A stretch of DNA of 20,795 bases from a virus. Its lineage: Duplodnaviria > Heunggongvirae > Uroviricota > Caudoviricetes. Within the stretch, counting starts at the first letter, position 1. Each line of letters opens with the position of its first letter. Below, piece after piece: positions 1,356 through 20,475 of this stretch. The notes beneath the pieces were generated by a model. The model did no database searches. It saw only the letters and a list, made by a program, of their open reading frames with translations, and had not been told where the DNA came from. The stretch lies in IMG/VR virus record IMGVR_UViG_2529292920_000022; one strand, written 5' to 3'. The position numbers and the translations under genes are program-made.

Positions 1356-2321
1356 ATGAACGACTCTCATGAAACAACAGTGGTGCATAGAAATTTATGG
1401 CAGGAATCAGGTATTCCACCTTTGGACTACTGCACGATAGAGCGAGCATCAAAATTATTAAATTGTGAAATTGATGATATATGGCATTGGAAAGATAGAC
1501 TACATATAGACTTTTATGTCTATGCTGACTTTCTTGATTTCATTGAATCTGATGCCACCATCCACTTCAAAAAAGATGCTAATTTTATAACTGATTTATT
1601 ACTTATGTACCCAGAAGAAGTAAGGTTTACATTTCCTTTTCTTATTACCAGCGCAAGCAACGAAGTTTATATCCCAGCATCTGAAAGCGGTGCTTATGAG
1701 CTATTTTATGCACATAAACCACTGACAGTTGAAGACAGCGACAATAAAAATGTTTTTGAACAAATTGGCAAAAACTCTTTTATTGTAAGAAAATCAATTG
1801 CATGTGGATTGTTGCGTGTACGCGGTAGAACAACACGACATTATCATTCACAAGAATGTGGAGAACCATATGTGCGACTTGAAGCAACATTTGATTGTGA
1901 TCTATATAAATTCAAAATGCAAAGTTCCCAAATTCACCTGAGTAGCCTGTCAGATAAAAACATTTATATAACAAAGGCTGATTTAGAATACCTTCATGAC
2001 GCAAAGGTTAATGGAAGTTTTGACGCAGCTAAGAGCAAAAAACGATACGAAATGGCGGTAGAACAGGAACTAATACCTGAAATAAAAAATAGCAACCATA
2101 ATGCCGAGAGACATGCTGAAAACAGGGAAAAACTTTTCAAATCTGCAATATATCTTTTGTCAAAGTATCCTGATGAATGCCGTGGCAAAAAGAAAGAAAT
2201 AAGCCCTGAGAAGTGGCGGGATTGCATAGTGGCTCATAAAGACGAAATTCCACCGTTAGCAATCACAAATGAAGATGTGATTTTGAGACACTTACGTGCT
2301 GCCGCCAACGGTAAGGGGTAG
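1356..2321 (+). CDS. Hypothetical protein, AT-rich cargo gene between int and alpA (same position as yfjH in CP4-57)
   Basis: 321-aa ORF with an AAAAGG Shine-Dalgarno upstream. Markedly lower GC than the flanking int and alpA. No motif I recognise. Followed by a strong intrinsic terminator. Confidence 0.6.
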   Translation: MNDSHETTVVHRNLWQESGIPPLDYCTIERASKLLNCEIDDIWHWKDRLHIDFYVYADFLDFIESDATIHFKKDANFITDLLLMYPEEVRFTFPFLITSASNEVYIPASESGAYELFYAHKPLTVEDSDNKNVFEQIGKNSFIVRKSIACGLLRVRGRTTRHYHSQECGEPYVRLEATFDCDLYKFKMQSSQIHLSSLSDKNIYITKADLEYLHDAKVNGSFDAAKSKKRYEMAVEQELIPEIKNSNHNAERHAENREKLFKSAIYLLSKYPDECRGKKKEISPEKWRDCIVAHKDEIPPLAITNEDVILRHLRAAANGKG

Positions 2322-2336
2322 AGTAGCTAACTATTC

Positions 2337-2367
2337 AGGCACAGTATCATTACTGTGCCTTTTTATT
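2337..2367 (+). terminator. Rho-independent terminator after the AT-rich cargo ORF
   Basis: 10-bp perfect stem AGGCACAGTA / TACTGTGCCT with a 4-nt loop, followed by a T-rich run. Confidence 0.6.
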
Positions 2368-2435
2368 GTTCATATATGTACAGATACTTCCTCCCGTAAC
2401 GAAGCAACAACTATCGCTAAGAGGTTACGGGAAGC

Positions 2436-2649: not shown

Positions 2650-3770
2650 AAACCGCCCATTACAGGCGGCTAATTCAGATATTCGCGTATCTGATGTTAC
2701 GCCCCTGACAAAATCCCTTCAAGCACCTGTATGGGTCCACCACATATTGCAATTTTTATTCTCTTTTAAAATATATTCCACGGGCGTCATTAGTGCGAGC
2801 GCCTTGTGGGGTCTTTTGCTGTTATACAGCACCAGATATTCCGCCAGCTTCTGGTTAAATAGCGCCAGATCTTCAAAGAGTAAAATCTCATTAAATTCAA
2901 TAAACTGCTCTCTTAACGTCCGGTTAAAACGTTCACAGATAGCGTTCATTTTTGGCGTGTAGGGATAGGTCCAGAGGTGTTTGATAGCGGCTTCCTGCAG
3001 CGTTTTGTCGAAGTTTCCCAGGAACTCTTTTCCGTTATCTGTGATTATCTGGCTGATACCGACCGGGAACAACCGGGCTGCGCGGCTGAAGAAGTGATTG
3101 ACGATATCACTGTTGAGTGACGGCACAGCCAGCGCCAGCGCGTAATTGCTGCATTCGTCGATCATGGTGATGACATAGCGACGCAGTTCGCCCATTCTGA
3201 GCTCAATGGCGTCCATCCCAATGAGCTCACCTGTCTTTACCGGGCGGTAGTGCTTTGGCCTGCGGGGTTTGGCAGACCGCTTTTTGACAAGCAGTGCCTT
3301 CCCCCGCGATCCCAGACGCACAGGTATCATCCGCATTTTATCATGTGCGGCAGCGATCATTCTGCCGATGGTGGAAACACTCGGACAGGCCAGATAGCGC
3401 TGTTCGCACCAGGGCTTCAGGCGAACAAAAATCTGCTCTTTACCGAGGTTCGGCAGCTCTGTCCTGAGGCGTCGAATCTCTTTCAGCACATCGGGATGCC
3501 AGTGTTTTTTTCGTCGCACCAGAGGTGCCTTACTGTGCGGGATTAGCCCCTCAGGTCCTTCCTTGTTCAGTAACTGACGCCACCAGTAAAGCGTGCGGCA
3601 GGACACGCCAAAGGCTTCAGAAGCTGCAGAAATACCGTGTTTATCCCAGAAGTGCAGAGCCTTCATTCTCATTGTTGCTATATCAGCCATCACTGAAAGC
3701 CTCAACGCATAATCGGCCGTTTGGTAGTACTTAGGATAGCCAACCATCAGATGCTGCATTTGCATAGTGC
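2650..3770 (-). mobile_element. IS481-family-like insertion sequence (single-ORF DDE transposase); boundaries approximate
   Basis: A single minus-strand ORF with an N-terminal HTH and an rve-type DDE core fills the gap between alpA and the next plus-strand gene. Imperfect inverted motifs near both ends (CATCAGAT-containing) are candidate terminal repeats. Exact ends and target-site duplication not resolved. Confidence 0.5.
2719..3765 (-). CDS. DDE transposase (rve / integrase core), IS481-family-like
   Basis: 348-aa ORF. N-terminal HTH (MADIATMRMKALHFWDKHGISAASEAFGVSCRTLYWWRQ) and candidate D, D, E residues (GMDAIEL, ITDNGKEF, NAICERFNRTL). The true start is probably the internal Met near 3690. 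Confidence 0.75.
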   Translation of the reverse strand: MQMQHLMVGYPKYYQTADYALRLSVMADIATMRMKALHFWDKHGISAASEAFGVSCRTLYWWRQLLNKEGPEGLIPHSKAPLVRRKKHWHPDVLKEIRRLRTELPNLGKEQIFVRLKPWCEQRYLACPSVSTIGRMIAAAHDKMRMIPVRLGSRGKALLVKKRSAKPRRPKHYRPVKTGELIGMDAIELRMGELRRYVITMIDECSNYALALAVPSLNSDIVNHFFSRAARLFPVGISQIITDNGKEFLGNFDKTLQEAAIKHLWTYPYTPKMNAICERFNRTLREQFIEFNEILLFEDLALFNQKLAEYLVLYNSKRPHKALALMTPVEYILKENKNCNMWWTHTGA

Positions 3771-3865
3771 AATCTCCCCTTACTTATCCGGAGGCAATTG
3801 CAATATCTCTGTGAACTTACACAGCACCAAAGCGCACACCGAAAAAGCATCGTGCCAGAGTCTAT

Positions 3866-4171
3866 ATGCTGCGTACTGGTATAGAGGGATGGACAGAAAA
3901 TGACATTCTTCGCTACTGCCGTCTGTCTTCTGGTCGTAACTATGCAACAGAGTTAGAACGCCAGCTTGGAATCACTCTGGAGCGTATCGACGAAAAGAAT
4001 CCTGATGGTATCGGAACACACCTTCGCTACCGTTTCTCCTGCCGTGGTGATGTTCTGAAAGTGATCACTCATGTTAACCATCTTGCGAACATAAATGATC
4101 ACAACGGACTTTCTCAGCAGGAAATTGCCGACATTCTGAAACTCTACCCGAACGCGTTTAACGCCGCCTAA
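3866..4171 (+). CDS. Hypothetical protein (101 aa); possibly a remnant of a gene disrupted by the IS
   Basis: Open frame immediately right of the IS with no convincing RBS at the annotated ATG. Confidence 0.35.
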   Translation: MLRTGIEGWTENDILRYCRLSSGRNYATELERQLGITLERIDEKNPDGIGTHLRYRFSCRGDVLKVITHVNHLANINDHNGLSQQEIADILKLYPNAFNAA

Positions 4172-4183
4172 CGGAGACTGAAA

Positions 4184-5017
4184 ATGAACATCGAAAAAAG
4201 CAGATTAATTTCTGAGGCCGCCCCTCATCTGAACGCCTCTCTGGGCACAATTAACGGTAATGAATTTGCCGCAATTGTCCCGGTTATTCCTGGTCATATC
4301 GGTGGGCGTGAAACCAATATTGTTAGCGCAAAAGCGTTACACAAAGCGTTGGGCGTGGGAAAAGACTTCTCTACATGGATCACTGATCGCATCTCTGAAT
4401 ATGACTTCACCATTGGGCACGATTACTCAGTCCATAAAACAATTTCCCCAAATTTGGGGAAAAGCCCGAATGGCGCGGCTTACAGCAAGATAAAGCACTC
4501 TGGCAGACCCGGCAAAGACTATCTGTTAAGTGTCGGAATGGCGAAAGAACTGGCAATGATCGAACGCAATGATCAGGGTCGCGCTATCCGCCGTTATTTC
4601 ATCCAGTGCGAGGAAGAATTACAGCGTACCGTGCCTGAAATCGCCGCCCGCTATCGTCGCCAGCTAAAAGCCCGTATTAGTGCCGCAAACAACTTTAAGC
4701 CAATGTGCGATGCGCTGAATATGGCCCGTGCCGAGATGGGGAAAATGACGCAGCAACACCACTACACAAACGAGAGCAATATGATTTCTCGTATCGTTCT
4801 TGGTGGGCTAACTGCTAAGCAGTGGGCGCGGATAAATGGCTATTCTGGCGAACCTCGCGACCATATGAACGCAGAACAGCTTGAGCACCTCTCATATCTC
4901 GAAAGCACCAATATCACGTTAATTGATATGGGCATGGAATATGAGCAGCGCAAAGGAGAACTCACCCGCCTGTCGCAACGCTGGCTCGCCAAGCGTCTGG
5001 AGGCGCTCAATGTCTAA
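4184..5017 (+). CDS. AntA/AntB-domain antirepressor-like protein
   Basis: 277-aa ORF. The segment KDYLLSVGMAKELAMIERNDQGRAIRRYFIQCEE and the preceding region match the AntA antirepressor domain pattern. Confidence 0.65.
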   Translation: MNIEKSRLISEAAPHLNASLGTINGNEFAAIVPVIPGHIGGRETNIVSAKALHKALGVGKDFSTWITDRISEYDFTIGHDYSVHKTISPNLGKSPNGAAYSKIKHSGRPGKDYLLSVGMAKELAMIERNDQGRAIRRYFIQCEEELQRTVPEIAARYRRQLKARISAANNFKPMCDALNMARAEMGKMTQQHHYTNESNMISRIVLGGLTAKQWARINGYSGEPRDHMNAEQLEHLSYLESTNITLIDMGMEYEQRKGELTRLSQRWLAKRLEALNV

Positions 5018-5189
5018 GCCAACAGGAACACCACAACCACAAAAACGCTACAAAGATGCCCACGGAGCACTCGTTACTGTCGAAAGCGTGTCTCACAACC
5101 GAGTGACGTTTTATCGCGACGGGTATCAATCGCCATGCGTACAACCGCTGGCGCGTTTCATGAAGGAGTTCGCGGAGGTTAACCAATGA
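5010..5189 (+). CDS. Small protein, DUF4222-like
   Basis: 59-aa ORF (MSKPTGTPQPQKRYKDAHGALVTVESVSHNRVTFYRDGYQSPCVQPLARFMKEFAEVNQ). GGAGG RBS 8 nt upstream; start overlaps the end of the upstream gene by 8 nt. Confidence 0.5.
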   Translation: MSKPTGTPQPQKRYKDAHGALVTVESVSHNRVTFYRDGYQSPCVQPLARFMKEFAEVNQ

Positions 5190-5619
5190 TACCCGTCCAG
5201 AAGAAGACATTTTCACTGGCTGGTATGTCGCCAAAATCCAGCAATATGACGGCAAAGTCAGGCATTAATACAGCAGATACAAGCAAAGTTTATCATTTGC
5301 TGGTGGTCGGAACGGATGCCTTAACCATACCAGAAATCTCGGGCGATGATATTAGCATTGAGAAGGTCAGCGGCTGCGCCAGAAAATTTCTGGTCGTAGA
5401 TGATGTCTTCCGCTCGCGTAGTGACTCCACAAAAACCTTCATCCGCGCGCGTGACGTTAACGAAATGAGCGCGATGTACTGTGCATCTGGTGCTTCCAAT
5501 AGCGAGTTTTCGGAGTCCATAAAAAAGAGCTTGCCGTTATGCGGCAACACGGTTTATGGTTATAAGGCACCTCATAAAACGGGTGCCGGGATTGGCGTCC
5601 TGGTAAATCGAATGGCGAC

Positions 5620-5847
5620 ATATGACGCGCCGAGCGTCTTTTTTTATGTCGTAGGTCTGACTCACCCATTTTTTGGGCGTTGGTGTATAATCCAGCGCCT
5701 TTGTCAATCAATGGTGGCTCAGGCAGGGGCTTCTTCGGAAGCGCCGGTATCCATTCGAGCCGGTTACGCCAACCCTGTCTGGGCTACCACCAGCGAAATT
5801 GGCGTTTCCGGTGGTAGCGTTACATGCTATCGAATGGAGGCTGCCAC
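5620..5847 (+). promoter_or_regulatory. Candidate terminator, promoter and structured leader upstream of the icd-like gene
   Basis: Short GC hairpin GACGC-GCCGA-GCGTC followed by a T7-8 run (about 5624-5645); extended -10 TGTATAAT (about 5684-5691); leader with a GCUUC-UUCG-GAAGC tetraloop hairpin and a 9-bp inverted repeat GCTACCACC / GGTGGTAGC; GGAGG RBS before the ATG at 5848. Confidence 0.3.
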
Positions 5848-6042
5848 ATGCTGGCTACTACCCCTACCCAAAAACCGCAATTTATCTGGATTATCGCCGC
5901 AGTTCGCCGCGATTGCCCGACAATTACCGCCAGAATTCATCATATTGCTGCCGAGTCTGAACGCGATGCTCGCCGTTCTCTGGTGCGCGATCACGTCTGC
6001 TTTTTTGCTGGTCGTATCCGCATGGAGGTGGCACATGATTAA
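5848..6042 (+). CDS. Icd-like (cell-division-inhibitor-like) small protein
   Basis: 64-aa ORF MLATTPTQKPQFIWIIAAVRRDCPTITARIHHIAAESERDARRSLVRDHVCFFAGRIRMEVAHD. The FxGR...V...H C-terminal pattern and size match Icd-like proteins of P1/P4-like elements. Good RBS. Confidence 0.55.
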   Translation: MLATTPTQKPQFIWIIAAVRRDCPTITARIHHIAAESERDARRSLVRDHVCFFAGRIRMEVAHD

Positions 6043-6253
6043 AACCTACGATGTGCATATGGATCCCCTCGAACGCACAAGCCAGATCATCACACTGACA
6101 GAAGTGATTAACGACATTCTGGTGAGCAACTCTCCCTCACGAGACGAAAGACTGAAGGCGTTACTCGCGATATTGGATCTCGCCGTTCGTGACGTTCATT
6201 TCCTGCTGGAAGGTGGCGAAATGCCAGTAAAAACGGGGGCAACCAATGAATAA
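6035..6253 (+). CDS. Hypothetical small protein (72 aa)
   Basis: ATG overlaps the icd-like stop (ATGATTAA); GGAGG RBS. It is the real 3' portion of the 355-aa ORF in the track, which I take to be a chimera. Confidence 0.5.
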   Translation: MIKTYDVHMDPLERTSQIITLTEVINDILVSNSPSRDERLKALLAILDLAVRDVHFLLEGGEMPVKTGATNE

Positions 6254-6440
6254 CTCAATTAATACCCCTCGCCTTACGTCCGCACTTCAATTAATCGAGC
6301 AAGCAGCGGCTGTCCTGGTTGCTGTCAGTCTTTCGGCTGAAGAAATGGACGCTACTGATGTCGTGGATGCGATTAAAGCGTGCTCATCTTTGGTTAACGA
6401 TGCCCGTGCAGAGCTGGTAATTCTTGGGGGTGAAAAATGA
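6246..6440 (+). CDS. Hypothetical small protein (64 aa)
   Basis: Start overlaps the upstream stop (ATGAATAA); part of a co-directional chain of coupled ORFs. Confidence 0.5.
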   Translation: MNNSINTPRLTSALQLIEQAAAVLVAVSLSAEEMDATDVVDAIKACSSLVNDARAELVILGGEK

Positions 6441-6700
6441 ATATCAACTTAATTTATCGTCATCCGTGTGAGCTGGAAATTGAATCATTGCTGAGCCGTG
6501 AAGAACCATATCCAGACACATTCACTCTTGCAGATCGCACGACTGAACGGCTTACCAGAGCGCGCACAGGTCTGGTTCATGTGATGAATGAGATTCTTCC
6601 ATCGGTGGGAGGGGAACAGGCGACAGTAATCACTAGCTGGCTACAAAAAGTTACCTCTCTGATAGATATCAGTTTAATCGATGCGGAGAGTGCGAAATGA
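6437..6700 (+). CDS. Hypothetical protein (87 aa)
   Basis: ATGA start/stop overlap with the upstream ORF. Confidence 0.5.
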   Translation: MNINLIYRHPCELEIESLLSREEPYPDTFTLADRTTERLTRARTGLVHVMNEILPSVGGEQATVITSWLQKVTSLIDISLIDAESAK

Positions 6701-6918
6701 CCAACATCCAGCTCATTGAAGCGCAATGTCGCATCGAACAGGTTCAGACTGTTTTAGGGTTCTGGCTTGAAGGGGCCAGCCCCAGCAACAGAGACAAGTT
6801 AATGATTGGCGCGGTTATGTCACTGCTCAATGGCGTACCAGAAGCTATTCAGGAAGCAGACGAATTGTTGGGCAAATATGAGTTACAGAATCATTCAGGC
6901 GAGGCGAAACATGAATAA
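6697..6918 (+). CDS. Hypothetical protein (73 aa)
   Basis: ATGA start/stop overlap with the upstream ORF. Confidence 0.5.
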   Translation: MTNIQLIEAQCRIEQVQTVLGFWLEGASPSNRDKLMIGAVMSLLNGVPEAIQEADELLGKYELQNHSGEAKHE

Positions 6919-7513
6919 TTTCTTAACTTTCCAGGCAGAAGCAACGCCTGACGGCGTAAACATCATGCACCGCAGCAACGATGGCATGACAGAACGCGTT
7001 GAGACCGTCTCATATATTGATGCCGTAAATCGTCTGGATGCCGAGGATTATGACGATAAACCAGATGAAGGTATGTCAATACATCTCGCTATTGCCGATG
7101 GCGGCAACCAGGGATATTTCGATTACACATCACAGCATAACGTCATTATGTGGAGATGGTTGATCGCAACAGTATTCATGCTGGAAATGAGAGAGGAAAA
7201 CGGCACTGTCAGCATCATTGATGATACTGGCAATCCTTCCGAAGTGGCTGTTTATTCCAACGGCATCGTCGCCATGCCGCTGTATCCAGTAGCAGAGCGC
7301 CTCGCTATGGCAAACAACATTGAGGGCGCGATGATAGAACGTTTTGGCATCGAGTCTGGCACAGAACGCTCCATCATTTTCTACAGAGCCATGATGGATG
7401 TGGAACAAGGAGCACTGACTCCATTTGGTCGTGAAACGCTTGCTGAACTTCACAACAGCTTTATAGCTGAACTGAATGAAAACGGCATGCCATCGGAACC
7501 AGTGACGCACTGA
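6911..7513 (+). CDS. Hypothetical protein (200 aa)
   Basis: Internal Met of track ORF 6806-7513; the start MNNFLTFQ overlaps the upstream stop (ATGAATAA). Confidence 0.5.
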   Translation: MNNFLTFQAEATPDGVNIMHRSNDGMTERVETVSYIDAVNRLDAEDYDDKPDEGMSIHLAIADGGNQGYFDYTSQHNVIMWRWLIATVFMLEMREENGTVSIIDDTGNPSEVAVYSNGIVAMPLYPVAERLAMANNIEGAMIERFGIESGTERSIIFYRAMMDVEQGALTPFGRETLAELHNSFIAELNENGMPSEPVTH

Positions 7514-7523
7514 GGATGGAACC

Positions 7524-7865
7524 ATGATTACTAAAAATTTCCGACTGAATGCGCTGGCAAATAAGTATGCGTCAGCACTGTATAACCACATTACCTCCAC
7601 CAGCGGCGGGGACTATTTCATGATTGATGCGGACGGAGAGGCCGTACGTGTGGAAATCGTCAATGGAGTAAAAGGCGTTCGCAGCCTGATCGATAGTTAC
7701 GCACTGGCAGCCATGAAAGTGTTCTACCCGCAGTGGGAAACCGTGGGGATCGAGCTTCTTGATCGTTGCGTCACTAAGGACAGATTGACTGACGTCGGGC
7801 GTGAGATATGGCAAAGCATGGTTAATGACATGGGCGCAACTGTAGCGGGAGGTTCTCATGCGTGA
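7524..7865 (+). CDS. Hypothetical protein (113 aa)
   Basis: Co-directional ORF in the pre-primase operon, with a short intergenic gap carrying an RBS-like GGAGGATGG. Confidence 0.5.
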   Translation: MITKNFRLNALANKYASALYNHITSTSGGDYFMIDADGEAVRVEIVNGVKGVRSLIDSYALAAMKVFYPQWETVGIELLDRCVTKDRLTDVGREIWQSMVNDMGATVAGGSHA

Positions 7866-8229
7866 AAATGCAGAAATGGCGCTTAGCTCCGCAATCGGAG
7901 AGCAGGTGGCAAAGATTGCTGGTGCTGTGTGGATTCATAACCTTCATTCTACTGGTGAAGAGAAAATGGCAATTCAGACGCCAGAGGGACGCACTATTAC
8001 TACATCTCTGAAGCCGTCAGATGTTTGTGATCTGATTTGCGCATTCATGTACCCAGCAATGAGGACTGTCCACGGCGATAAGTGGAAACTTGCGACAACC
8101 GCTGAATTTGATATGTGGCTAAACAATGATGGCATGCTGACTGATTACGGAATAACCAAGTGGCAGATGCTGGTTAGCCATATCGCAAACGCTATAGACC
8201 ACGTGGGGTACGGTGATGCGAAACATTGA
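7858..8229 (+). CDS. Hypothetical protein (123 aa)
   Basis: Start overlaps the upstream ORF end; its stop overlaps the primase start. Confidence 0.5.
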   Translation: MRENAEMALSSAIGEQVAKIAGAVWIHNLHSTGEEKMAIQTPEGRTITTSLKPSDVCDLICAFMYPAMRTVHGDKWKLATTAEFDMWLNNDGMLTDYGITKWQMLVSHIANAIDHVGYGDAKH

Positions 8230-10972
8230 TCTTATCCGTCAGGTTATCAGTGCGTCTGAAAACAACTGGCCTCATGTGCTGGGCTGCCTGAACATAAATG
8301 TCCCTGACTCTCCGCGCCGTCATGCTCCCTGCCCTGCATGTGGGGGCAAAGATCGATTCCGGTTCGATGACAACGGGCGCGGTAGCTTCATCTGTAATCA
8401 GTGCGGCGCTGGTGATGGGCTGGATTTAATTAAACGCGTAAATAACTGCGACACAACAGAGGCGGCGCTGCTTGCCGCTGATGTTCTGGGTATTGATTAC
8501 CGGACAACGGAAACACCAGAAGCCACCAGCCAGAAACGGGAACAACTGGAAACCGAGCGCCAGCAACGCGAACAGGAGCGCCTGAAAAGGGCGGAGAAGG
8601 ACGAACAACAAAGACGGGATACGTTTTCCCGTCAGTTTGATGACATGCGCAGAAAGGCTGTAAACGGCAAATCTGATTATCTGGTTGCGAAAGGGGTAGG
8701 TGATTTTACATTCCCCGTGTTGCCCGATGGATCTCTGTTGCTGGCGCTGGTGGATAAATCCGGCGCAGTCACAGCAGCACAGACTATTACCTCACATGGT
8801 GAAAAAAGACTCCTGACAGGTTCAGCAAAGCGGGGGGCATATCACGCCATAAACGCACCAGAAACAACACAGAGCATCTTAATCGCAGAAGGGCTGGCAA
8901 CGGCATTATCTGCCCATTTAATTCGTCCAGAGGCGCTGACAGTGGCGGCGATTGATGCCGGGAACCTGTTATATGTCGCCCAGGTACTGCGGGATAAATT
9001 TCCTTCAGCACAAATCATCATTGCTGCGGATAACGACCACAGCGAAGGAAGACAAAACACGGGGAGAATAGCAGCAGAAAAAGCAGCTTTATCTGTTTCT
9101 GGATGGGTGGCATTACCCCCGACAGGTCACAAAGCAGACTGGAATGATTACCACCAAAAACACGGCATTAAATGCGCCACAGAAGCGTTCAATAAGTCAA
9201 TGTACCAACCACAGGGTAATGGCGTGAAACAGGAGCCACAGACCATTGAGGGAAGCGATTTTAAGGTTATGGATACCGACCCACTGAAACCAAGAATAGA
9301 AAGCCGCGAGGATGGTATTTATTGGGTATCTCCGAGAGCTGACAGCCAGAGTGGAGAAATCATCAATAACGAAAGCTGGTTATGTTCTCCGTTAAGCGTT
9401 ATCGGTACTGGCAGAGACGATAAAGACCAGTATCTCATTCTTCGCTGGCTGTCGTTTGGTTCTGAAACGCCGACAACCGCTGCCATTCCACTGGCTGATA
9501 TTGGTGAACGTGAAGGATGGCGCACACTTAAAGCTGGTGGGGTAAATGTCACGACCAAAAGCAGCCTCAGAGCAATACTGGCAGACTGGCTACAACGCAG
9601 TGGCTCTCGTGAATTGTGGCGTGTTGCTCATGCCACTGGCTGGCAATGCGGAGCGTACATCATGCCTGATGGGGAAATCATCGGAACACCTGAAAATCCT
9701 GTGCTGTTCAGCGGGAGAAGCTCAGCCGCAGCCGGATATACCGTCTCAGGGAGCGCGCAAAGCTGGCGTGATAACGTGGCGCGTCTGGCCTTTGGTAACT
9801 ATTCAATGATGACCGGGATCGGCGCAGCACTGGCAGCACCATTGATTGGGCTGGTGGGCGCTGACGGGTTCGGCATTCATTTCTATGAGCAGTCGAGCGC
9901 AGGTAAGACCACCACGGCAAACGTGGCGAGCAGCTTATACGGCAACCCTGATTTACTGCGGCTGACGTGGTACGGAACCGCGCTGGGGCTGGCAAATGAG
10001 GCCGCCGCCCACAATGACGGACTAATGCCGCTTGATGAAGTTGGTCAGGGCGCTGATCCTGTCAGCGTTTCACAGTCTGCCTATGCGTTATTTAACGGTG
10101 TAGGGAAACTGCAAGGCGCTAAAGATGGTGGAAACCGGGATCTAAAACGCTGGCGTACAGTGGCAATCAGCACCGGAGAAATGGATTTAGAAACATTTAT
10201 CGCTACTTCCGGGCGAAAAACCAAAGCCGGGCAACTGGTGCGACTGCTGAATATTCCGTTGAGTAAAGCAGTACGCTTTCACGATTACCAGAACGGAAAA
10301 CAGCACGCAGACGCACTGAAAGACGCTTACCAGCATCACCATGGCGCAGCCGGGCGTGAGTGGATTAAATGGCTGGCAGACCACCAGCAACAGGCTATTA
10401 AAACTGTTCGTGATTGCGAAAGCAGATGGAGAAGCCTGATCCCACCCGATTATGGTGAGCAGGTTCACCGTGTAGCCGCGCGATTTGCCATTCTGGAGGC
10501 CGCATTGTTGTTAGGCGAGGTTGTAACAGGCTGGGATGCTCAGACATGCCGTGATGCGATACAGCACAGCTATAACGCATGGTTGCGCGAGTTCGGCACA
10601 GGTAACAAAGAGCATCAGCAGATTATTGAACAAACGGAGGCATTTCTTAATGCCTATGGGCTTAGCCGTTTTGCACCATTTCCATACAGCCCGGCAGATT
10701 TGCCCATCAAAGATTTAGCCGGATACCGTCAGCGTGGAGAACATGACGAAAGCCCAATGATTTTCTACACATTCCCGGCCACATTTGAAAAGGAGATCGC
10801 ATGTGGTTTCAACGCAAAACAGTTTGCTGAAGTGTTGAAAAAAGCCGGGATGCTAACCCCACCAAACAGCGGTCGTGGATACCAAAGAAAATCACCACGT
10901 ATTCAGGGACGACAAATAAACGTTTATGTACTCAATTACCAGCCAGGAGATTATAACTCATCTGAAGAATGA
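8213..10972 (+). CDS. Primase-helicase (P4 alpha-like: zinc-binding primase region, TOPRIM, C-terminal helicase domain)
   Basis: 919-aa ORF. N-terminal Cys cluster (CPACGGKDRF...CNQCG); TOPRIM-like acidic motifs (IAEGLATALS..., IIIAADNDHSEGRQNTG); Walker A-like GIHFYEQSSAGKTT and Walker B-like LMPLDEVG. The ATG at 8216 is the likely start (8213 is GTG). Confidence 0.9.
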   Translation: MMRNIDLIRQVISASENNWPHVLGCLNINVPDSPRRHAPCPACGGKDRFRFDDNGRGSFICNQCGAGDGLDLIKRVNNCDTTEAALLAADVLGIDYRTTETPEATSQKREQLETERQQREQERLKRAEKDEQQRRDTFSRQFDDMRRKAVNGKSDYLVAKGVGDFTFPVLPDGSLLLALVDKSGAVTAAQTITSHGEKRLLTGSAKRGAYHAINAPETTQSILIAEGLATALSAHLIRPEALTVAAIDAGNLLYVAQVLRDKFPSAQIIIAADNDHSEGRQNTGRIAAEKAALSVSGWVALPPTGHKADWNDYHQKHGIKCATEAFNKSMYQPQGNGVKQEPQTIEGSDFKVMDTDPLKPRIESREDGIYWVSPRADSQSGEIINNESWLCSPLSVIGTGRDDKDQYLILRWLSFGSETPTTAAIPLADIGEREGWRTLKAGGVNVTTKSSLRAILADWLQRSGSRELWRVAHATGWQCGAYIMPDGEIIGTPENPVLFSGRSSAAAGYTVSGSAQSWRDNVARLAFGNYSMMTGIGAALAAPLIGLVGADGFGIHFYEQSSAGKTTTANVASSLYGNPDLLRLTWYGTALGLANEAAAHNDGLMPLDEVGQGADPVSVSQSAYALFNGVGKLQGAKDGGNRDLKRWRTVAISTGEMDLETFIATSGRKTKAGQLVRLLNIPLSKAVRFHDYQNGKQHADALKDAYQHHHGAAGREWIKWLADHQQQAIKTVRDCESRWRSLIPPDYGEQVHRVAARFAILEAALLLGEVVTGWDAQTCRDAIQHSYNAWLREFGTGNKEHQQIIEQTEAFLNAYGLSRFAPFPYSPADLPIKDLAGYRQRGEHDESPMIFYTFPATFEKEIACGFNAKQFAEVLKKAGMLTPPNSGRGYQRKSPRIQGRQINVYVLNYQPGDYNSSEE

Positions 10973-10997
10973 GCTTCTTCATGTGCGTAGAAAAGGT

Positions 10998-11108
10998 GTT
11001 GGTTCAGTTGGTTCAGTTGGTTCAATTTGTAAAGAGTATTGTTTTATAAGGATTTTATTCTTTTTATTGAACCAACACTGAACCAACAACACGGTATTTT
11101 GAACCAAC
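10998..11108. repeat. Iteron array, putative replication origin (left copy of an inverted pair)
   Basis: Three tandem GTTGGTTCA 9-mers (about 10998-11024), a 44-bp AT-rich spacer, then three TGAACCAAC 9-mers (the reverse complement) at about 11069, 11079 and 11100. Lies immediately 3' of the primase gene. Confidence 0.6.
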
Positions 11109-11428
11109 ACAATGTGACTGAATTGATGCGCACAACACCTGGCTGGCATCAGAGAGTGTTTTACGAGACTTTCGTAAAATCCTGTGTACAAGGGCGTGAC
11201 GTTTTTGAAAGTGAGCACTACGAAATTTTCGTAGTTCAAAAAACAGCCTCTGAGAAGTTGTTATGCCTGTTCAGCAAACCATCCGCATAGCTGATCGCGA
11301 ATCAAATTACCAATGGAGCCAGAAGCAAGGGCAGAACTGAAAAGCGCCTGCCGTGAAGAGTAATGCGATACCATAAATATAGTTTTTAGAGTCCATAAAA
11401 AACCTGTCAAAACCTGACACACAGAACG

Positions 11429-11462
11429 ATGCCACCAGCTACTGAGCGGTGGCATTTTTTTG
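11429..11462 (+). terminator. Rho-independent terminator
   Basis: 8-bp stem ATGCCACC / GGTGGCAT with an 11-nt loop, followed by 8 or more T. Confidence 0.6.
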
Positions 11463-11556
11463 TGCTATTTGTTTCATATTTTGCAATTACGATGATGAAT
11501 ATTGCGATTTGTGAAACCATAATAACTGTTGTTTTATACAGTTCTAAGGGGGCGTT

Positions 11557-11718
11557 ATGGCTATTTCAGTAAAGCCGGTATTGATAAGTGAGAAGCAAAT
11601 GGAAGCGATAAAGAAAATTCAGGAAGAGCAGCGTAAAAAATCAGGAATTGGAGTAGCGCCAACTCTGCATGAAATTGCACGAGGGTTAATAGATAAGGCG
11701 CTGGCAGGCTGTATGTGA
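11557..11718 (+). CDS. Small hypothetical protein (53 aa), possible regulator
   Basis: ORF MAISVKPVLISEKQMEAIKKIQEEQRKKSGIGVAPTLHEIARGLIDKALAGCM with AAGGGGG RBS. Below the ORF-track length cutoff. First gene after the terminator and promoter-like AT-rich region. Confidence 0.4.
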   Translation: MAISVKPVLISEKQMEAIKKIQEEQRKKSGIGVAPTLHEIARGLIDKALAGCM

Positions 11719-11734
11719 AAATGGATGGCATCGC

Positions 11735-12196
11735 ATGGAACTAAAATTTATTGATAACCCTGTGCGATTACAGGCCTTTCTTAACGAGCCAGGCAATACC
11801 GAAAATATTGTTGAGCCGGGGCACACGTACTACATCAAGCCTGATGCGGTATATCTCGGCATCTACGAAGGATTAGTGCTGGCTGGCGTTCATGAAGTGC
11901 GTAACTTCTGGCATAGCGTTGTTGAATGCCATGCGGTGTACGACCCCGGATTCCGTGGTGAATATGCACTGCAAGGGCATCGATTATTCTGCAAATGGCT
12001 TCTCGAAAACTCACCATTCCTTAACAGCATCACCATGGTTCCTGACACCACCAAATACGGACGGGCAATTATCCGTTTGCTTGGCGCTACCCGTGTTGGT
12101 CACCTTGATGATGCTTATATCAGATGTGGTAAACCCGTCGGCGTAACGCTTTATCAGTTAACTCGGCAACAATATAAGGAATTCAGCGAATGTTAA
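11735..12196 (+). CDS. Phage virion-assembly-associated protein, P22 gp14-like by position (tentative)
   Basis: 153-aa ORF translationally coupled (ATGTTAA overlap) to the following three genes. Assigned by position in a gp14-gp7-gp20-gp16-like array; the sequence itself is not diagnostic to me. Confidence 0.4.
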   Translation: MELKFIDNPVRLQAFLNEPGNTENIVEPGHTYYIKPDAVYLGIYEGLVLAGVHEVRNFWHSVVECHAVYDPGFRGEYALQGHRLFCKWLLENSPFLNSITMVPDTTKYGRAIIRLLGATRVGHLDDAYIRCGKPVGVTLYQLTRQQYKEFSEC

Positions 12197-12867
12197 TTAC
12201 CCATATAGCTCATAAACATCTCAATCGTGCCGTATACGAAAAAGGCGGTGATGGTGGTGCCTCTAAAGCTCAGGCGAAGGCCCAGCAGCAGGCAATTGAT
12301 TTGCAGCGCGAGCAGTGGAATACGGTGATGAATAATCTCAAGCCGTATGCAGAAGTCGGATTGCCTGCTTTACAACAACTGCAAGGACTGATGACTCTGG
12401 AAGGGCAGAATAAAGCCGCGAATGATTTCTTTGGTTCTGGTTTATATAAAACACAGGCAGATCAGGCCCGTTATCAGAACCTTGTCTCAGCAGAAGCTAC
12501 CGGGGGGCTTGGCTCAACAGCTACCAGTAACCAGTTATCTTCCATTGCGCCCATGCTTTATAACAATTGGCTCAGTGGGCAAATGCAAAATTATGGAAAC
12601 CTGCTAAATGTCGGGATGAATGCGGCATCAGGGCAGGCAACGGCAGGGCAAAACTACGCCAATAATACCGGACAACTCTTGCAGGGGCTTGGCGCTATTC
12701 GTGCAGGTCAGGCGCAGCAGCCATCCAGTCTTGCGCGTGGTATTGGTGGGGCAGCATCAGGCGCTTTAGCGGGTGCGCAACTTGGTTCCGTTGTTCCTGG
12801 AATAGGAACTGCGGCCGGCGCTATTGGTGGTGGGCTTATTGGTCTTGTTGGGGGGCTTGGATTCTAA
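12190..12867 (+). CDS. Ejection (internal virion) protein, P22 gp7-like
   Basis: 225 aa (P22 gp7 is about 229 aa as I recall). Gln/Ala/Gly-rich with a Gly-rich hydrophobic C-terminus (GIGTAAGAIGGGLIGLVGGLGF). TAATG coupling to the next gene. Confidence 0.55.
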   Translation: MLITHIAHKHLNRAVYEKGGDGGASKAQAKAQQQAIDLQREQWNTVMNNLKPYAEVGLPALQQLQGLMTLEGQNKAANDFFGSGLYKTQADQARYQNLVSAEATGGLGSTATSNQLSSIAPMLYNNWLSGQMQNYGNLLNVGMNAASGQATAGQNYANNTGQLLQGLGAIRAGQAQQPSSLARGIGGAASGALAGAQLGSVVPGIGTAAGAIGGGLIGLVGGLGF

Positions 12868-14288
12868 TGGCGACATGGCAACTTGGCGGGCTGCCTAGCA
12901 TGGCACCGCAAAATGATAATGCTCCTCGTTCTTCCGTTCCTCAGCCTGTGCAGTATCAGCAGCAGCCAAACGTAGGTTTAATGGCGCTACAGGGGCTAAG
13001 AGGCGTTGCTGAGATTAATCAGCAGGCACGTCAACAACAGCGTAAATCAGAGTTTCAGAAAGCATATGCCGGGGCTTTTGAGTCTGGAGACAGAAACAAA
13101 ATGCGCAGTCTTATTTCTGAGTATCCAGAAGAATTTGAAAGCGTTCAGAAAGGGATGGGCTTTATTGATGACGACCAGAGAAATTCTATTGGTCATCTTG
13201 CGACTAGTGCTCAAATCGCATCTTCGCTCGGAACTGGGGCATTTGGAAAATTCATAGCAGATAACGAAGATGAAATGCGTCGCTTGGGAATTTCTCCTGA
13301 GTCTGTTGCCGAAATGCATGTTAATGATCCACAGGGATTCCAGCGGCTTGCTGGTAGTATGGCACTGTTTTCTCTCGGTCATGAGAAGTATTTCGATATC
13401 AAAGATCAAATGGAAGGTCGGGATATTGAGCGAGGCAGGCTGGCAGAGACAATCCGCAGCAATCAGGCTGGCGAAGCACTTCAGGCGAGAGGGCAGGATA
13501 TTAGCCGAGCAAATGCGTTAACGTCAGCATATGCACCAACAGCAGCAATGCAGAATTACAATCAGTACGCTCAAATGTTAAAGGCGGATCCAGAGGGGGC
13601 GGCGGCATTTGCGGCAGCGGCTGGAATTAATACAAACGCCAAAAAATTAATGAGTGTTAGAGAAAACGATGATGGCACTGTCACAAAATACTACACAGAC
13701 GGAAGTGAAGAGCAGGGAAAACTAAACCAGCCAATATCTGGAGATGGGTTTCGTCCAATAGCTTTGCCAACAGCCCAAAAGATCATGGAAAAGTCGCCAG
13801 AAGGGGCTAAAAAAGCTGCTGGATTTGCATACAGGGTTAGGGATGCTCTTGATTCAATAGATACACTGAAAGACCAGCTTAGCCCACAGCGAGTGGCGAT
13901 CATTAATAATGCTTTGGGTAATGGGACGCTGGCTAACTTAACGCTCAGCCCAACAGAGCAGCAATACGTTGTTAATGCTAATGACGCAATAATGGCAATA
14001 CTCCGTCAGGAAACAGGGGCAGCTATCGTACCTGCTGAAATGTCAAAATATTATCAAATGTATTTCCCTCAGCCTGGCGACTCCACAAAAACCATTGATA
14101 CCAAGCGCCGGAAGATGGAAAACCAGTTCAATTCGCTGAAAGCTGCTTCTGGTCGAGCTTATGATGCTTTGCGGGTTATTTCAGCAGTTGACAGAGGAAC
14201 GTCTTCTTCGTCGCAGACATTGCCGCAATCTGAGCAGGTATCACAGCCAGCAGCCAGCAGTAACTTTTCTTCACTATGGGGTGATTAA
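12867..14288 (+). CDS. Ejection protein, P22 gp20-like
   Basis: 473 aa (P22 gp20 is about 471 aa as I recall). Low-complexity Q/A-rich N-terminus. TAATG coupling on both sides. Confidence 0.55.
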   Translation: MATWQLGGLPSMAPQNDNAPRSSVPQPVQYQQQPNVGLMALQGLRGVAEINQQARQQQRKSEFQKAYAGAFESGDRNKMRSLISEYPEEFESVQKGMGFIDDDQRNSIGHLATSAQIASSLGTGAFGKFIADNEDEMRRLGISPESVAEMHVNDPQGFQRLAGSMALFSLGHEKYFDIKDQMEGRDIERGRLAETIRSNQAGEALQARGQDISRANALTSAYAPTAAMQNYNQYAQMLKADPEGAAAFAAAAGINTNAKKLMSVRENDDGTVTKYYTDGSEEQGKLNQPISGDGFRPIALPTAQKIMEKSPEGAKKAAGFAYRVRDALDSIDTLKDQLSPQRVAIINNALGNGTLANLTLSPTEQQYVVNANDAIMAILRQETGAAIVPAEMSKYYQMYFPQPGDSTKTIDTKRRKMENQFNSLKAASGRAYDALRVISAVDRGTSSSSQTLPQSEQVSQPAASSNFSSLWGD

Positions 14289-16393
14289 TGGCTAAAGCAT
14301 GGAAAGATGTTATCGCCTCTCCACAGTATCAGGCGTTAGCACCAGAACAAAAAGCGCAGGCTCAGGAGCAATACTTCAATGAAGTCGTTGCCCCGCAAGC
14401 CGGAGAAAGTGTAGAGCAGGCTAAGCAGGCTTTTTATGCTGCCTATCCACTACCATCAACGAATGAAATAGACCGATCCCAATCAGCAACTCAAAATATT
14501 CAACATACATCATCTGATAATTCTCTTGCGTCAGGGTATGCAAAGTTAGCTACTCAGCAAAGAGAGGGGCTTGAGCGTTCAGCAGAACAGGGAGCCAGTC
14601 TTGGGGCTGCGATGCGCGATGCTATAACAGGCGAAAGCCGAATGACTTCAGAGATGGAGAGACTGCAAAATGTCGCCTCTGCCCCAGAATTGAACTCACT
14701 AAGCATGGATGCCCTAAAGGCTGGATGGTCCCAACTTTTCGGCTCTGACGCGTCTCAGGAAAAGATTCTTCAGGGAATGGGGGCGACATTAAGGCAGGAT
14801 GAGAAGGGGAATACTATCGTTTCTCTGCCATCAGGTGATTATGCCCTGAACAAGCCGGGTTTATCACCGCAAGACCTGACTTCGTTTCTTGCTAATGCGT
14901 TGGCGTTTACACCAGCGGGCAGGGCTGGAACGGTGCTTGGTGCCATAGGAAAATCAGCAGCTACAGATTTAGCACTACAGGGAGCCACCAGCCTTGCTGG
15001 TGGAGAAGATATTGATCCGTTACAAACGGTAATTTCTGCTGGTATTGGTGGTATTGGTAAGGGGCTGGAAAATACAGCGAGTGCGGTTTCGAGGGCTGTT
15101 CGTGGTGATATGTCGCCTGAAGCAAAGGCTGCTGTCGACTTTGCATCGGAAAGAAATCTGCCGTTAATGACCAGTGACATGCTGAAAGATAAAACCTTTA
15201 TGCAGAGTCAGGCTCAGACATTAGGCGAAAGAGTTCCTTTTTTTGGAACCGGTAAGAATCGGCTGAATCAACAACAAGCACGAGAAAATTTAGTCAGAAC
15301 ATTTAGCGATGGTCTGGGTGGCATTTCTGATAAACAGCTTTATGAATCTGCGACTAAAGGGCAACAAAAATTCATTGAGGCAGCAGGAAAGCGATATAAC
15401 CGCATAATTGACGCTATGGGGGATACCCCTGTCGATCTCTCAAACACGGTAAAAGCTATCGACAATCAGATTGCCGTGTTAAGCCGCCCGGGCAAATCTC
15501 AGGATAGAGCCGCGGTAAAAGTCTTGCAGCAATTTAAAGACGATATCACCAGCGGACCAAATGACCTGCGCCTGGCGAGGGAAAACAGAACCGATCTTCG
15601 AAAGCGATTTATTGCGTCATCTGACACTGTTGATAAAGATACGCTCCAGAAAGCCAGCGATATTATCTACAAGGCATATACGGCGGATATGAAAAAAGCC
15701 GTAGCCAAAAATCTTGGAGCAGACGAAGCCATTAATATGGCAAGGGTTGATCGCTCATGGTCTAAATTCAATGACATGATGGGAAGAACGCGCGTTCAAA
15801 AGGCAATAGCCAGCGGCAAGGCCACGCCTGAGGATGTAACAAAACTCGTTTTTAGCCAAAGCCCATCAGAACGTTCTCAGCTTTACAGGCTTCTGGATGA
15901 CAATGGTAGGCAAAACGCACGAGCAGCCATAGTTCAGAATGCTGTAGATAAGGCGACTGATCCGTCTGGAAATATCAGTGTTGAGAAGTTTATTAATGCG
16001 TTACACCGGAACAGGAAGCAATCAGCAACTTTCTTTAAAGGCGTACATGGGAAGGAACTGGACGGCGTTATTAAATACCTCAACGATACAAGACACGCGG
16101 CAAAAGCGAACGTTCAAAACTTAAATGGTCAGCAGCTTTATGGATTGTTAGTTGGTGGTGGCATCATAAACGCAGCAGTATTAGCGGGGATGCTAAAAAC
16201 GGCTGCGTTTGTTGTTCCTGCTGCTGGTGCCGTAGGCGGAGCAGCGAAGGCATACGAAACCCCTGTTATACGAAATGCCTTGTTACGTCTGGCAAATACG
16301 CCAAAAGGTAGCACAGCATATGACAGAGCGATCAGTACGGTCACACAATCGCTCACCAGAGTCGCACAGGCATCACAAAAAGAAGCTCAATAA
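14288..16393 (+). CDS. Ejection protein, P22 gp16-like
   Basis: 701 aa. Ala/Gln/Gly-rich with a C-terminal hydrophobic Gly/Ala segment (LLVGGGIINAAVLAGMLKTAAFVVPAAGAVGGAA). Last gene of the four-gene coupled operon. Confidence 0.55.
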   Translation: MAKAWKDVIASPQYQALAPEQKAQAQEQYFNEVVAPQAGESVEQAKQAFYAAYPLPSTNEIDRSQSATQNIQHTSSDNSLASGYAKLATQQREGLERSAEQGASLGAAMRDAITGESRMTSEMERLQNVASAPELNSLSMDALKAGWSQLFGSDASQEKILQGMGATLRQDEKGNTIVSLPSGDYALNKPGLSPQDLTSFLANALAFTPAGRAGTVLGAIGKSAATDLALQGATSLAGGEDIDPLQTVISAGIGGIGKGLENTASAVSRAVRGDMSPEAKAAVDFASERNLPLMTSDMLKDKTFMQSQAQTLGERVPFFGTGKNRLNQQQARENLVRTFSDGLGGISDKQLYESATKGQQKFIEAAGKRYNRIIDAMGDTPVDLSNTVKAIDNQIAVLSRPGKSQDRAAVKVLQQFKDDITSGPNDLRLARENRTDLRKRFIASSDTVDKDTLQKASDIIYKAYTADMKKAVAKNLGADEAINMARVDRSWSKFNDMMGRTRVQKAIASGKATPEDVTKLVFSQSPSERSQLYRLLDDNGRQNARAAIVQNAVDKATDPSGNISVEKFINALHRNRKQSATFFKGVHGKELDGVIKYLNDTRHAAKANVQNLNGQQLYGLLVGGGIINAAVLAGMLKTAAFVVPAAGAVGGAAKAYETPVIRNALLRLANTPKGSTAYDRAISTVTQSLTRVAQASQKEAQ

Positions 16394-16397
16394 CTGG

Positions 16398-16421
16398 TTA
16401 GCCATGGATGGCTAATTTTTG
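16398..16421 (+). terminator. Candidate terminator between convergent genes
   Basis: Inverted repeat TTAGCCAT / ATGGCTAA followed by TTTTT, immediately after the gp16-like stop. Confidence 0.35.
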
Positions 16422-16831
16422 TTCTTTGCTCTCATCCATAGGTAAAGAAGGGAAAGAACAAGACAAAAAACAGAGAATAGATAACCTACCTCATATGGTG
16501 CGCCAAAAAAATTAGCCATTGATACGGGCAAAAAAGCTGAAGCGATCAAAATTGAAAGGCAAAAAATAAGCCCAGTAATATAGTTTATTAAATTCTTAAA
16601 TGAGAAACGTTTTGCTTGATTTACGGTCTTAACGAACGATCGCTTAACGACGGATAAAAGCAAATAGATGGCGACAGTTGCTAATGCCCCTTTCCACCAG
16701 TCTGGATATAGTTTTGCGACAATCAGACCAAGGAAAACCATGATGACAGCCTGAGCATTCACACCAACCCTCCCTTTAGCTTTGTTTAGAATGGCAATCA
16801 TCATATATCCAAGACATGGCATTTGGTACAT
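16412..16831 (-). CDS. AT-rich integral membrane protein; candidate superinfection-exclusion / moron protein
   Basis: 139-aa ORF with about four hydrophobic helices (VIMVFLGLIVAKLY, ATVAIYLLLSVV, GLIFCLSILIASAFL, LFSVFCLVLSLLYLW). Low GC. Convergent with the ejection operon, the position SieA occupies in P22. Confidence 0.55.
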   Translation of the reverse strand: MYQMPCLGYMMIAILNKAKGRVGVNAQAVIMVFLGLIVAKLYPDWWKGALATVAIYLLLSVVKRSFVKTVNQAKRFSFKNLINYITGLIFCLSILIASAFLPVSMANFFGAPYEVGYLFSVFCLVLSLLYLWMRAKNKN

Positions 16832-17285
16832 AGCTTGGGTCGGGATTTCAAATCCGATCCCCGTTGATGGGGCCGTTACAGTACGCGCATATCCTCTTTA
16901 TGTGAAACAGGAAGATTTTTCTGATATCACTGCCACAGCAAAACACCAATTTCGTGACCAGTACGCGCGCGAGGGGTATCAGTTGCAAAAAATTTTGCAA
17001 CTGCGTCCGACCAGTACGCACACGATGGCGGGGAGCACCATAAAACTGTTCTCTACATAAGACAGAGTGGTGGTGATGTGTTGATTATCGGCGTATATGC
17101 GCACAGGACGCGCTATGACGATGTTTTATGCGGGTACACCAATCACATGTATCTGGTGTGATCAATCGCGTTACATGACATCTCATGTTGTGCTGGTGAT
17201 TATCACGACGTTCTGAATCTGGCCTTTGCCTGATATTTTGCGACAAGTACGCGCGCGTAGCATCGACAGCATACACATTGGATAT

Positions 17286-17486
17286 TCATTTTGTGACCAA
17301 TGCGATAAGTAGCGGGATAAGAATTGATAAAATCAACAGGACGATGATCCACTTTTGATTCTCGTCCATCTTATCTGCTAGGCGACGCTCCATTCCGTGC
17401 ATATCACCGCGAATGGCAATCATCTCATTGCGAACATCCGAGAAGTGGTTGGCTTGATGTTCAATGTGTGGCGTTCTGCCTTTCAT
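17286..17486 (-). CDS. Small single-pass membrane protein (XhlA-like topology)
   Basis: 66 aa: a charged, helical N-terminal part followed by a C-terminal transmembrane segment (WIIVLLILSILIPLLIALV). Confidence 0.4.
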   Translation of the reverse strand: MKGRTPHIEHQANHFSDVRNEMIAIRGDMHGMERRLADKMDENQKWIIVLLILSILIPLLIALVTK

Positions 17487-17567
17487 GTCTGATCCTCACC
17501 TATCGTCACCACCTGATGGTGTATAAAGGTATTAGCCCAAGCAGCTTTCCAATGGGCACTCATGTTT

Positions 17568-19928
<2,361 letters not shown>

Positions 19929-20187: not shown

Positions 20188-20475
20188 ATGATAAAGGACA
20201 GGAAAGCTGAAGAGCTGGAGTCAAAAGGGCTATACCGGAGAGCTGCCGCACGATGGGCAGAAGTCATGATGCTGGCAGATGGCGATAAAGAACGTGAACA
20301 TGCAGCAAACAGACGCTCTGAATGTATCCGTAAGGCGGCACGCCCACCAGCAACTACAGACAGATTCGGAGATTTAAGACAGGCAGTTAAGCGGACTCAT
20401 TCGGCTCTTGGTATGGATGAGGAAGCGAGAGGGTACTTCAGGCGTTATCGCGATAAAGATTGCCAGAGACAGTAA
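20188..20475 (+). CDS. PerC-family transcriptional regulator-like protein
   Basis: 95-aa ORF; the N-terminus MIKDRKAEELESKGLYRRAAARWAEVM matches the PerC/Pch family pattern. TATAAT-like -10 and a GAGAGG RBS lie just upstream, directly next to the iterons. Confidence 0.65.
   Translation: MIKDRKAEELESKGLYRRAAARWAEVMMLADGDKEREHAANRRSECIRKAARPPATTDRFGDLRQAVKRTHSALGMDEEARGYFRRYRDKDCQRQ

Follow-up and report, generated by a model that had tools for sequence, protein, structure and literature searches.

A large unnamed protein family between the integrase and alpA genes of satellites and islands with P4-type integrases: a candidate accessory component of the excision module

The DNA analyzed here (the window; 20,795 nucleotides, IMG/VR virus record IMGVR_UViG_2529292920_000022) is identical to a yicC-adjacent island present in many E. 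coli chromosomes. It begins with the gene for a P4-type tyrosine integrase (int, 1–1260, + strand; Arm-DNA-bind_3, Phage_int_M and Phage_integrase domains), the first gene of an int-X-alpA module in which alpA (2436–2639, +; Phage_AlpA/HTH_17) is the third. Between the two lies an open reading frame of 321 amino acids with an ATG start (1356–2321, +), here called X, the RefSeq entry of which (WP_001000004.1) bears the name 'hypothetical protein'. A Shine-Dalgarno sequence, AAGGTG (1343–1348, +), is found 7 nt upstream of the ATG, and the gene is followed by an intrinsic terminator (2337–2370, +) consisting of a 10-bp stem at 2337–2360 with a 4-nt loop and a T-run; other X alleles also keep the terminator, with altered stem bases. 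The GC content of X is 0.369, as compared with 0.498 for int and 0.505 for alpA, and its GC3 is 0.29, as compared with 0.49 for int. Searches of Pfam, NCBIfam and PHROGs gave no significant match for X, and neither X alone nor a profile found a match among PDB sequences. X is a real gene and not a chance ORF. An earlier, sequence-only reading of the locus had described an AT-rich ORF with its own ribosome-binding site and terminator, a GC content far below that of its neighbors and no family match, and in these respects the description held.

The end of int and the start of X are separated by a 95-nt spacer without an intervening gene, in which we found no promoter-like site. The spacer contains a full-length instance of Rfam RF02996, 'int-alpA RNA' (1269–1335, +; 60.6 bits vs. 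a gathering value of 35.8, E=1.4e-10), which is closed by a 9-bp stem, GATTGAGCC/GGCTCAATC (dG −32.4 kcal/mol, z −2.96), and ends 20 nt ahead of the X start codon. RF02996 was also present between int and an X-family gene in five other loci (L002, L009, L010, L019, and L027), and wherever the start of the X-family gene was defined (L002, L009, L019, and L027), 16–21 nt separated it from the end of the motif. This position was constant across different X alleles, including L019, where the integrase is only 29% identical to that of the window. The motif was missing from loci in which int and X adjoin or overlap, and it was not found before the non-X occupant of the slot described below. Rfam lists RF02996 as an sRNA without an assigned function, named for the flanking int and alpA, whereas in the window and the five other loci its place was specifically the gap separating int from an X-family gene; the literature searched yielded nothing on its function. 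The RNA at 1269–1335 probably forms the leader of X or the 3′UTR of int. Its fixed position before the ribosome-binding site of X suggests that RF02996 is a cis-acting leader of X-family genes rather than a free-standing sRNA.

The alpA gene has a leader of its own, with a 9-bp inverted repeat, TCCCGTAAC/GTTACGGGA (2392–2432, +), that flanks the alpA Shine-Dalgarno sequence on both sides. The repeat was kept in six loci, one of which, L009, shows a compensatory double change (CCCATAAC/GTTATGGG), and it could be a translational hairpin or an alpA operator; this proximal part of the leader was conserved regardless of the X allele. We also observed four TGTACA(T/C) repeats between yicC and int, in attL just upstream of window nt 1 (L001:18660–18715), which probably serve as arm sites for the integrase or as sites for AlpA. 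A further TGTACA is located between the X terminator and the alpA leader (2377–2382).

A word-indexed search with X returned 48 homologous clusters, from Enterobacterales, and a profile search of a 50%-identity library returned 600 representatives at E≤1e-3 and 164 at E≤1e-10, nearly all of them 270–380 amino acids long. By these searches, X belongs to a large unnamed protein family of approximately 600 clusters at 50% identity. The named members, from Klebsiella, Salmonella, Cronobacter, Xenorhabdus, Brenneria, and Kosakonia, are all entered as 'hypothetical protein'. None of the 135 members scanned contained a Pfam domain, HTH_17 being matched weakly by one of them (E=0.005). The GC content of X was 7–20 points under that of its own int and alpA in nine of nine loci, and it was low at every codon position across the family. 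Since the trait is family-wide, the low GC of X is no sign of a separate acquisition.

The family alignments showed a semi-conserved N-terminal motif, IPPLDYCTIERASKLLNCEIDDIWHW, which lies within a predicted winged-HTH core of the MerR/Xis/AlpA type (residues ~21–57; 1416–1526, +). The core is followed by a hypervariable, beta-rich centre of ~140 residues (residues ~58–195; 1527–1940, +), in which neither the alleles nor the subgroups of the family can be aligned with each other. A conserved short stretch, (D/N)(L/I)(W/Y)IT, with a helix behind it, was also recognized, and the protein ends in a helical domain (residues ~247–321; 2094–2318, +; ERHAxNREKLFKSAIYLLSKYPDECRG..EISPEKWRDCI..EIPPL.ITNEDVILRHLR) with a long helix (~224–270) before it. 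The C-terminal ~75 residues were almost invariant in the closer subgroup.

AlphaFold2 with a 48-sequence alignment produced a moderate model of X (pLDDT 73, pTM 0.58). In the model, a beta-alpha-alpha-beta unit forms the N-terminus (pLDDT 82–91 over residues 21–60), and the rest comprises a beta-rich centre, the long helix and a small helical C-terminal bundle. The N-terminus is accordingly predicted to be a MerR/Xis/AlpA-like winged helix. An hhalign comparison of X with an AlpA alignment was in the correct register and gave this assignment weak support (E=0.018, probability 2.5%), and the match to the Pfam HTH_17/Phage_AlpA family HMMs was not significant. The excisionases of the Xis-AlpA-Vis-TorI group (HTH_17) have the same fold class as the predicted N-terminus of X, which likewise lies beside a tyrosine integrase gene. 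X differs from them in being 4–5 times larger, with the hypervariable centre and the conserved C-terminal domain in addition, and in that a canonical AlpA is already encoded just downstream of it. No nuclease, TIR, SIR2, NADase, ATPase, pore or membrane domain was visible in the X models or fold searches, Foldseek against viral structures (BFVD) gave nothing at E≤0.001, and no structural neighbor of the C-terminal domain was found.

In the C-terminal 66 codons of X, synonymous sites were saturated (pS 0.7–1.0) and pN was low (0.05–0.3), so the conservation acts on the protein, and the domain is, as judged from this comparison, under strong purifying selection. On account of the saturation, we also rejected the idea that the 3′ end of X owes its conservation to a DNA function such as that of an alpA promoter. 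The possibility exists that the selected feature of the region is its AT-rich DNA or its RNA, that is, an H-NS-silenced spacer or the int-alpA RNA, and that the X ORF is incidental or decaying. The GC content, which is low at all codon positions family-wide, would fit such a situation, as would the conserved structured RNA adjoining the ORF and the 471 nt of AT-rich non-coding DNA found after an alternative occupant of the slot. We consider it very improbable, however, since the ORF is intact over its full, similar length in approximately 600 clusters, amino-acid change is very low in a C-terminal part whose synonymous sites are saturated, and a secondary-structure and domain model could be obtained for the protein.

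The surroundings of X-family genes were examined in all 17 loci that could be inspected, with attachment sites by yicC, ssrA/smpB, tRNA genes near proA, and fis. In 17 of 17, a P4-type integrase gene was located directly 5′ of the X-family gene and an AlpA-like ORF 3′ of it, on the same strand. The elements included ones with cf-PICI capsid genes, P4-like Ogr/Delta and ASH genes, P22-like ejection genes or BREX, and some of their integrases were only 25–31% identical to that of the window. In the BREX-bearing island, the defence cargo was 3′ of alpA and X was still between int and alpA. The spacing between int and X was a 4-nt overlap (L040 and L044, fis-integrated satellites from IMG/VR), 0 (L015), 8–27 or ~92–96 nt. 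One of the loci containing int, int-alpA RNA, an X-family gene and an alpA-like gene (L019; Klebsiella phage P12620-1, PQ569648.1: 93181–95441) is part of a 106-kb 'phage' record, so that either a satellite or island is embedded in the record or the phage itself has the module. No match to X was found by tblastn in 50,697 phage records, and the same search with the family member P0080 gave one distant match, in a Klebsiella 'phage' record and again with int upstream.

The sequence-only reading had regarded X as a cargo gene, to be doubted if one and the same gene filled the slot in every related island. At the level of the family, the slot gene was constant: as attachment sites, cargo and genera differed, an X-family gene filled the int-X-alpA position in all 17 loci. 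Since the family is always found between a P4-type int and alpA, X is more likely to be a part of the excision switch than anti-phage cargo.

At the level of individual alleles, the int-proximal slot was variable, as the sequence-only reading had proposed. Approximately 320 of 5,426 complete E. coli genomes had the window's integrase type, and among these the slot was occupied by the 321-aa X allele of the window (~77 genomes), a 316-aa X allele (~41 genomes), a 281-aa X allele (~37 genomes) or an unrelated 216-aa gene with a 471-nt AT-rich gap (~110 genomes). Thus, at least three highly divergent X alleles occur on near-identical E. coli islands. The product of the 216-aa gene (WP_001059729.1) did not belong to the X family by hmmsearch or hhalign; in L028:1566–2687 and L029:4266–5387, the gene overlaps int by 4 nt, and the DNA 3′ of it has 34% GC and no ORF over 471 nt. 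The gene could be functionally analogous to X without being homologous to it, or else be what is left of a different cassette.

The replacements were clean swaps between flanks of approximately 99% identity. Compared with the island carrying the 281-aa allele, the exchanged cassette was 1361–2392 (+), with flanks that were 99.3% identical to nt 1360 and 98.8% identical from nt 2393. The corresponding values were 99.2% to nt 1248 and 86% from nt 2121 for the 316-aa allele, and 99.0% to nt 1241 and 81% from nt 2449 for the 216-aa occupant. Because the cassette reaches 43 nt before alpA, the X terminator and the distal alpA upstream region were swapped along with X. The island backbone of ~18 kb (alpA, antA, ash with the isrK/C4 RNAs, primase, ejection proteins, ImmA/IrrE, and PerC) was the same for each X allele, the window island being 98–99% identical to the 281-aa-allele island over nt 3823–16411 and 94–99% identical to the 316-aa-allele island. 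The attL region upstream of int was 99% identical whatever the occupant of the slot. Allele-specific arm sites in attL were therefore rejected, and the X alleles are not matched to the integrase arm sites there. Since integrases with ~98–99% identity pair with unrelated X alleles or with the 216-aa gene, X cannot be an indispensable site-specific cofactor of the window integrase. Co-variation of the X C-terminus with Int and AlpA was borderline (rho 0.42–0.50), the 281-aa allele being a counter-example.

Several other features of the island were recorded. The isrK RNA and the C4 antisense RNA, which are the immunity RNAs of the P4 type (5567–5644 and 5707–5794, +), lie within ORF 5186–6253, which RefSeq names 'ash family protein', an annotation that may be spurious or overlapping; the island uses P4-like RNA immunity though it is without psu, delta, and sid. 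Just 3′ of alpA, an IS element (2728–3822; transposase ORF 2719–3765, − strand, rve/rve_3 and HTH) is inserted that is absent from the otherwise identical islands L001, L030, and L031. It disrupts the 143-aa gene normally found after alpA, and ORF 2639–2962 is therefore a chimera. P22-type ejection/injectosome genes (11735–16393, +; DUF2824, Inj_translocase, injection protein) are present in a satellite devoid of capsid, portal and terminase genes, and the same odd content, ejection genes without capsid genes, has been reported for the Kapi1-dependent PICI EcCIMP1. A second variable region (16412–19608) is occupied in the window by an IS21-type pair (istA-like 17793–18815, IstB 18880–19542) and in sister islands by an ImmA/IrrE peptidase gene and small hypothetical genes. 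At the far end, the island has a PerC-family regulator gene (20188–20475, +); for the PerC homologue of EcCIMP1, repression of LEE1 in Citrobacter rodentium has been reported.

The exchange of divergent alleles and an unrelated gene as cassettes in otherwise 98–99% identical islands is also what would be expected if X were an anti-phage or interference factor, a single island protein that senses or blocks phage and has its centre shaped by an arms race. Every occupant of the slot is AT-rich, the GC content of the slot analogues being 0.34 for P4 cII, 0.37 for yfjH, and 0.43 for the 216-aa gene. Immune genes are found at the 5′ or 3′ ends of PICIs (PMC11364771) and beside int in P4 (PMC13586616), where cII, directly 3′ of int, is part of the gop-beta-cII system (PMC13586616), and EcCIMP1-type islands confer an unexplained superinfection immunity without a known defence system (PMC11773190). 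The sequence-only reading had suggested a stand-alone abortive-infection or exclusion factor. The results argue against this: no defence model in PADLOC-DB was shared across the 135 family members scanned, none of the effector domains looked for (nuclease, TIR, SIR2, ATPase or membrane) was seen, and the architecture predicted for X is a DNA-binding one. The PDC-S31 match that PADLOC gave for X (E=0.002) was common to none of the other 134 members and was therefore put down to chance. By tblastn, X had no similarity to phage or Tai proteins, and the Tai proteins are encoded downstream of pri in PICIs, not between int and alpA (PMC11364771). Furthermore, X was found between int and alpA even where the BREX cargo was elsewhere, and its linkage to int persisted down to an integrase identity of ~25%, which is atypical of hotspot cargo.

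The slot analogues cII and yfjH are not homologous to X. P4 cII is, like X, int-adjacent and AT-rich with a terminator of its own, but the hhalign probability was 0.2%, and cII (sce7726 family) matches NCBIfam NF033832 at 2.5e-44, whereas X and its relatives do not. The sequence-only reading had likened the position of X to that of yfjH in CP4-57. The likeness in position by int, and in AT-richness, was seen, whereas yfjH is on the opposite strand and no homology was found (BLASTP E=0.44, hhalign probability 0.3%). Homology of X to YfjH, P4 cII, and the 216-aa gene was looked for and none was detected. Taken together, a defence role of X appears unlikely.

It is also possible that X regulates the island switch in an allele-specific manner, or determines its specificity, by controlling alpA and/or int. 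It could then be a helper-sensing or an immunity/incompatibility factor that functions like Stl of the SaPIs or the immunity repressors of phages, with the alleles kept by frequency-dependent selection as islands compete for one att site. Stl is, like X, encoded next to int and has an N-terminal HTH, and its remaining domains diverge among otherwise similar islands. A predicted HTH combined with a hypervariable domain directly upstream of alpA, the presence of at least three X alleles on one island backbone with one att site, and the swapping of the terminator and the distal alpA upstream region together with X, in a cassette that extends to 43 nt before alpA, are all consistent with such a role. 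In EcCIMP1, the alpA upstream DNA from −449 to +50 is helper-inducible (PMC11773190). However, X has no homology to Stl, and it is co-oriented with alpA with a strong terminator in between, whereas the SaPI stl and str genes are divergent. P4-type RNA immunity is already provided in the island by isrK and C4 (5567–5794), the proximal part of the alpA leader stays conserved from one X allele to the next, and X is missing from approximately one-third of the islands. In addition, the sole experimental phenotype of the gene class discussed below is loss of excision, not derepression (PMC10803314). We therefore regard a regulator of this kind as improbable.

The closest parallel to X in position is found in the Vibrio PICMI satellites, in which genes termed iolg (integrase-overlapping gene) or icg (integrase-contiguous gene) sit between int and alpA (PMC10803314). 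Thirteen divergent families of such genes are distinguished, and a few elements have none (PMC10803314). When iolg was deleted from PICMI115, helper-induced excision was lost, as were packaging and transduction, and the defect was complemented by a construct carrying int/iolg; the authors propose an excision complex of Int, IOLG and AlpA, the mechanism of which is left open (PMC10803314). Like the iolg/icg genes, X-family genes share the strand of int and alpA and lie between the two, are highly diverse, and are missing from some elements. The iolg genes overlap int by 1, 4 or 13 nt, and the X-family genes of L040 and L044 overlap it by 4 nt (ATGA type). An icg-like arrangement is seen in L015, with a gap of 0, and in the window X is contiguous with int across the 95-nt structured RNA, without overlap. 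The iolg class is a positional one of 13 unrelated families, and X is placed in it by position, not by sequence; no Vibrio PICMI was recovered among the viral contigs searched. In EcCIMP1, a related PICI of E. coli, the slot contains no more than a small unrelated ORF, and the element still excises (PMC11773190). This ORF, EcCIMP1_002, was considered as a relative of X and rejected.

The explanation that we tentatively favor, and to which we give a little less than an even chance, is that X may be an accessory, DNA-binding part of the int-X-alpA module for excision and activation, the enterobacterial counterpart of the iolg/icg genes, and not cargo. X would be transcribed together with int, and where the spacer exists, its translation would start 20 nt past the structure of the int-alpA RNA. 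The N-terminal Xis/MerR-like winged helix would bind DNA, the long helix would probably dimerize, and the conserved C-terminal bundle may contact a conserved partner. We infer that X would in this way assist or gate the excision and activation that depend on Int and AlpA, and the hypervariable centre would supply an allele-specific function. Given that one and the same integrase functions with various X alleles and also in their absence, X, if it acts in excision, is a modulator or interchangeable cofactor and not an obligatory site-specific partner.

A more far-reaching version is that the whole X family consists of modular recombination/activation factors in which an Xis-like winged helix is joined to a hypervariable specificity domain and a conserved partner-binding domain. 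Their expression would be set by the int-alpA RNA, and the alleles would be specificity, immunity or incompatibility types that decide, for islands with one integrase and one att site in common, the timing of excision or the helper or competitor to which it responds. We put this forward as a speculation that is unlikely to hold; if it were true, the orphan Rfam motif RF02996 would gain a function.

Satellites and islands with P4-type integrases are found in a large share of Enterobacterales genomes, and their switch from the integrated to the excised state is only partly understood. The iolg/icg class was already known, if barely characterized. The present analysis adds that one large unnamed family of approximately 600 clusters fills the position of the PICMI int-overlapping gene across many element types, and it connects a protein family and an Rfam motif, both of them orphans, with the question of satellite excision. 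It also calls for caution, in that AT-rich genes next to int should not be scored automatically as defence candidates. With the natural swaps of X alleles in E. coli, the joint action of Int, AlpA and the int-overlapping gene, a question left by the PICMI study, becomes testable.
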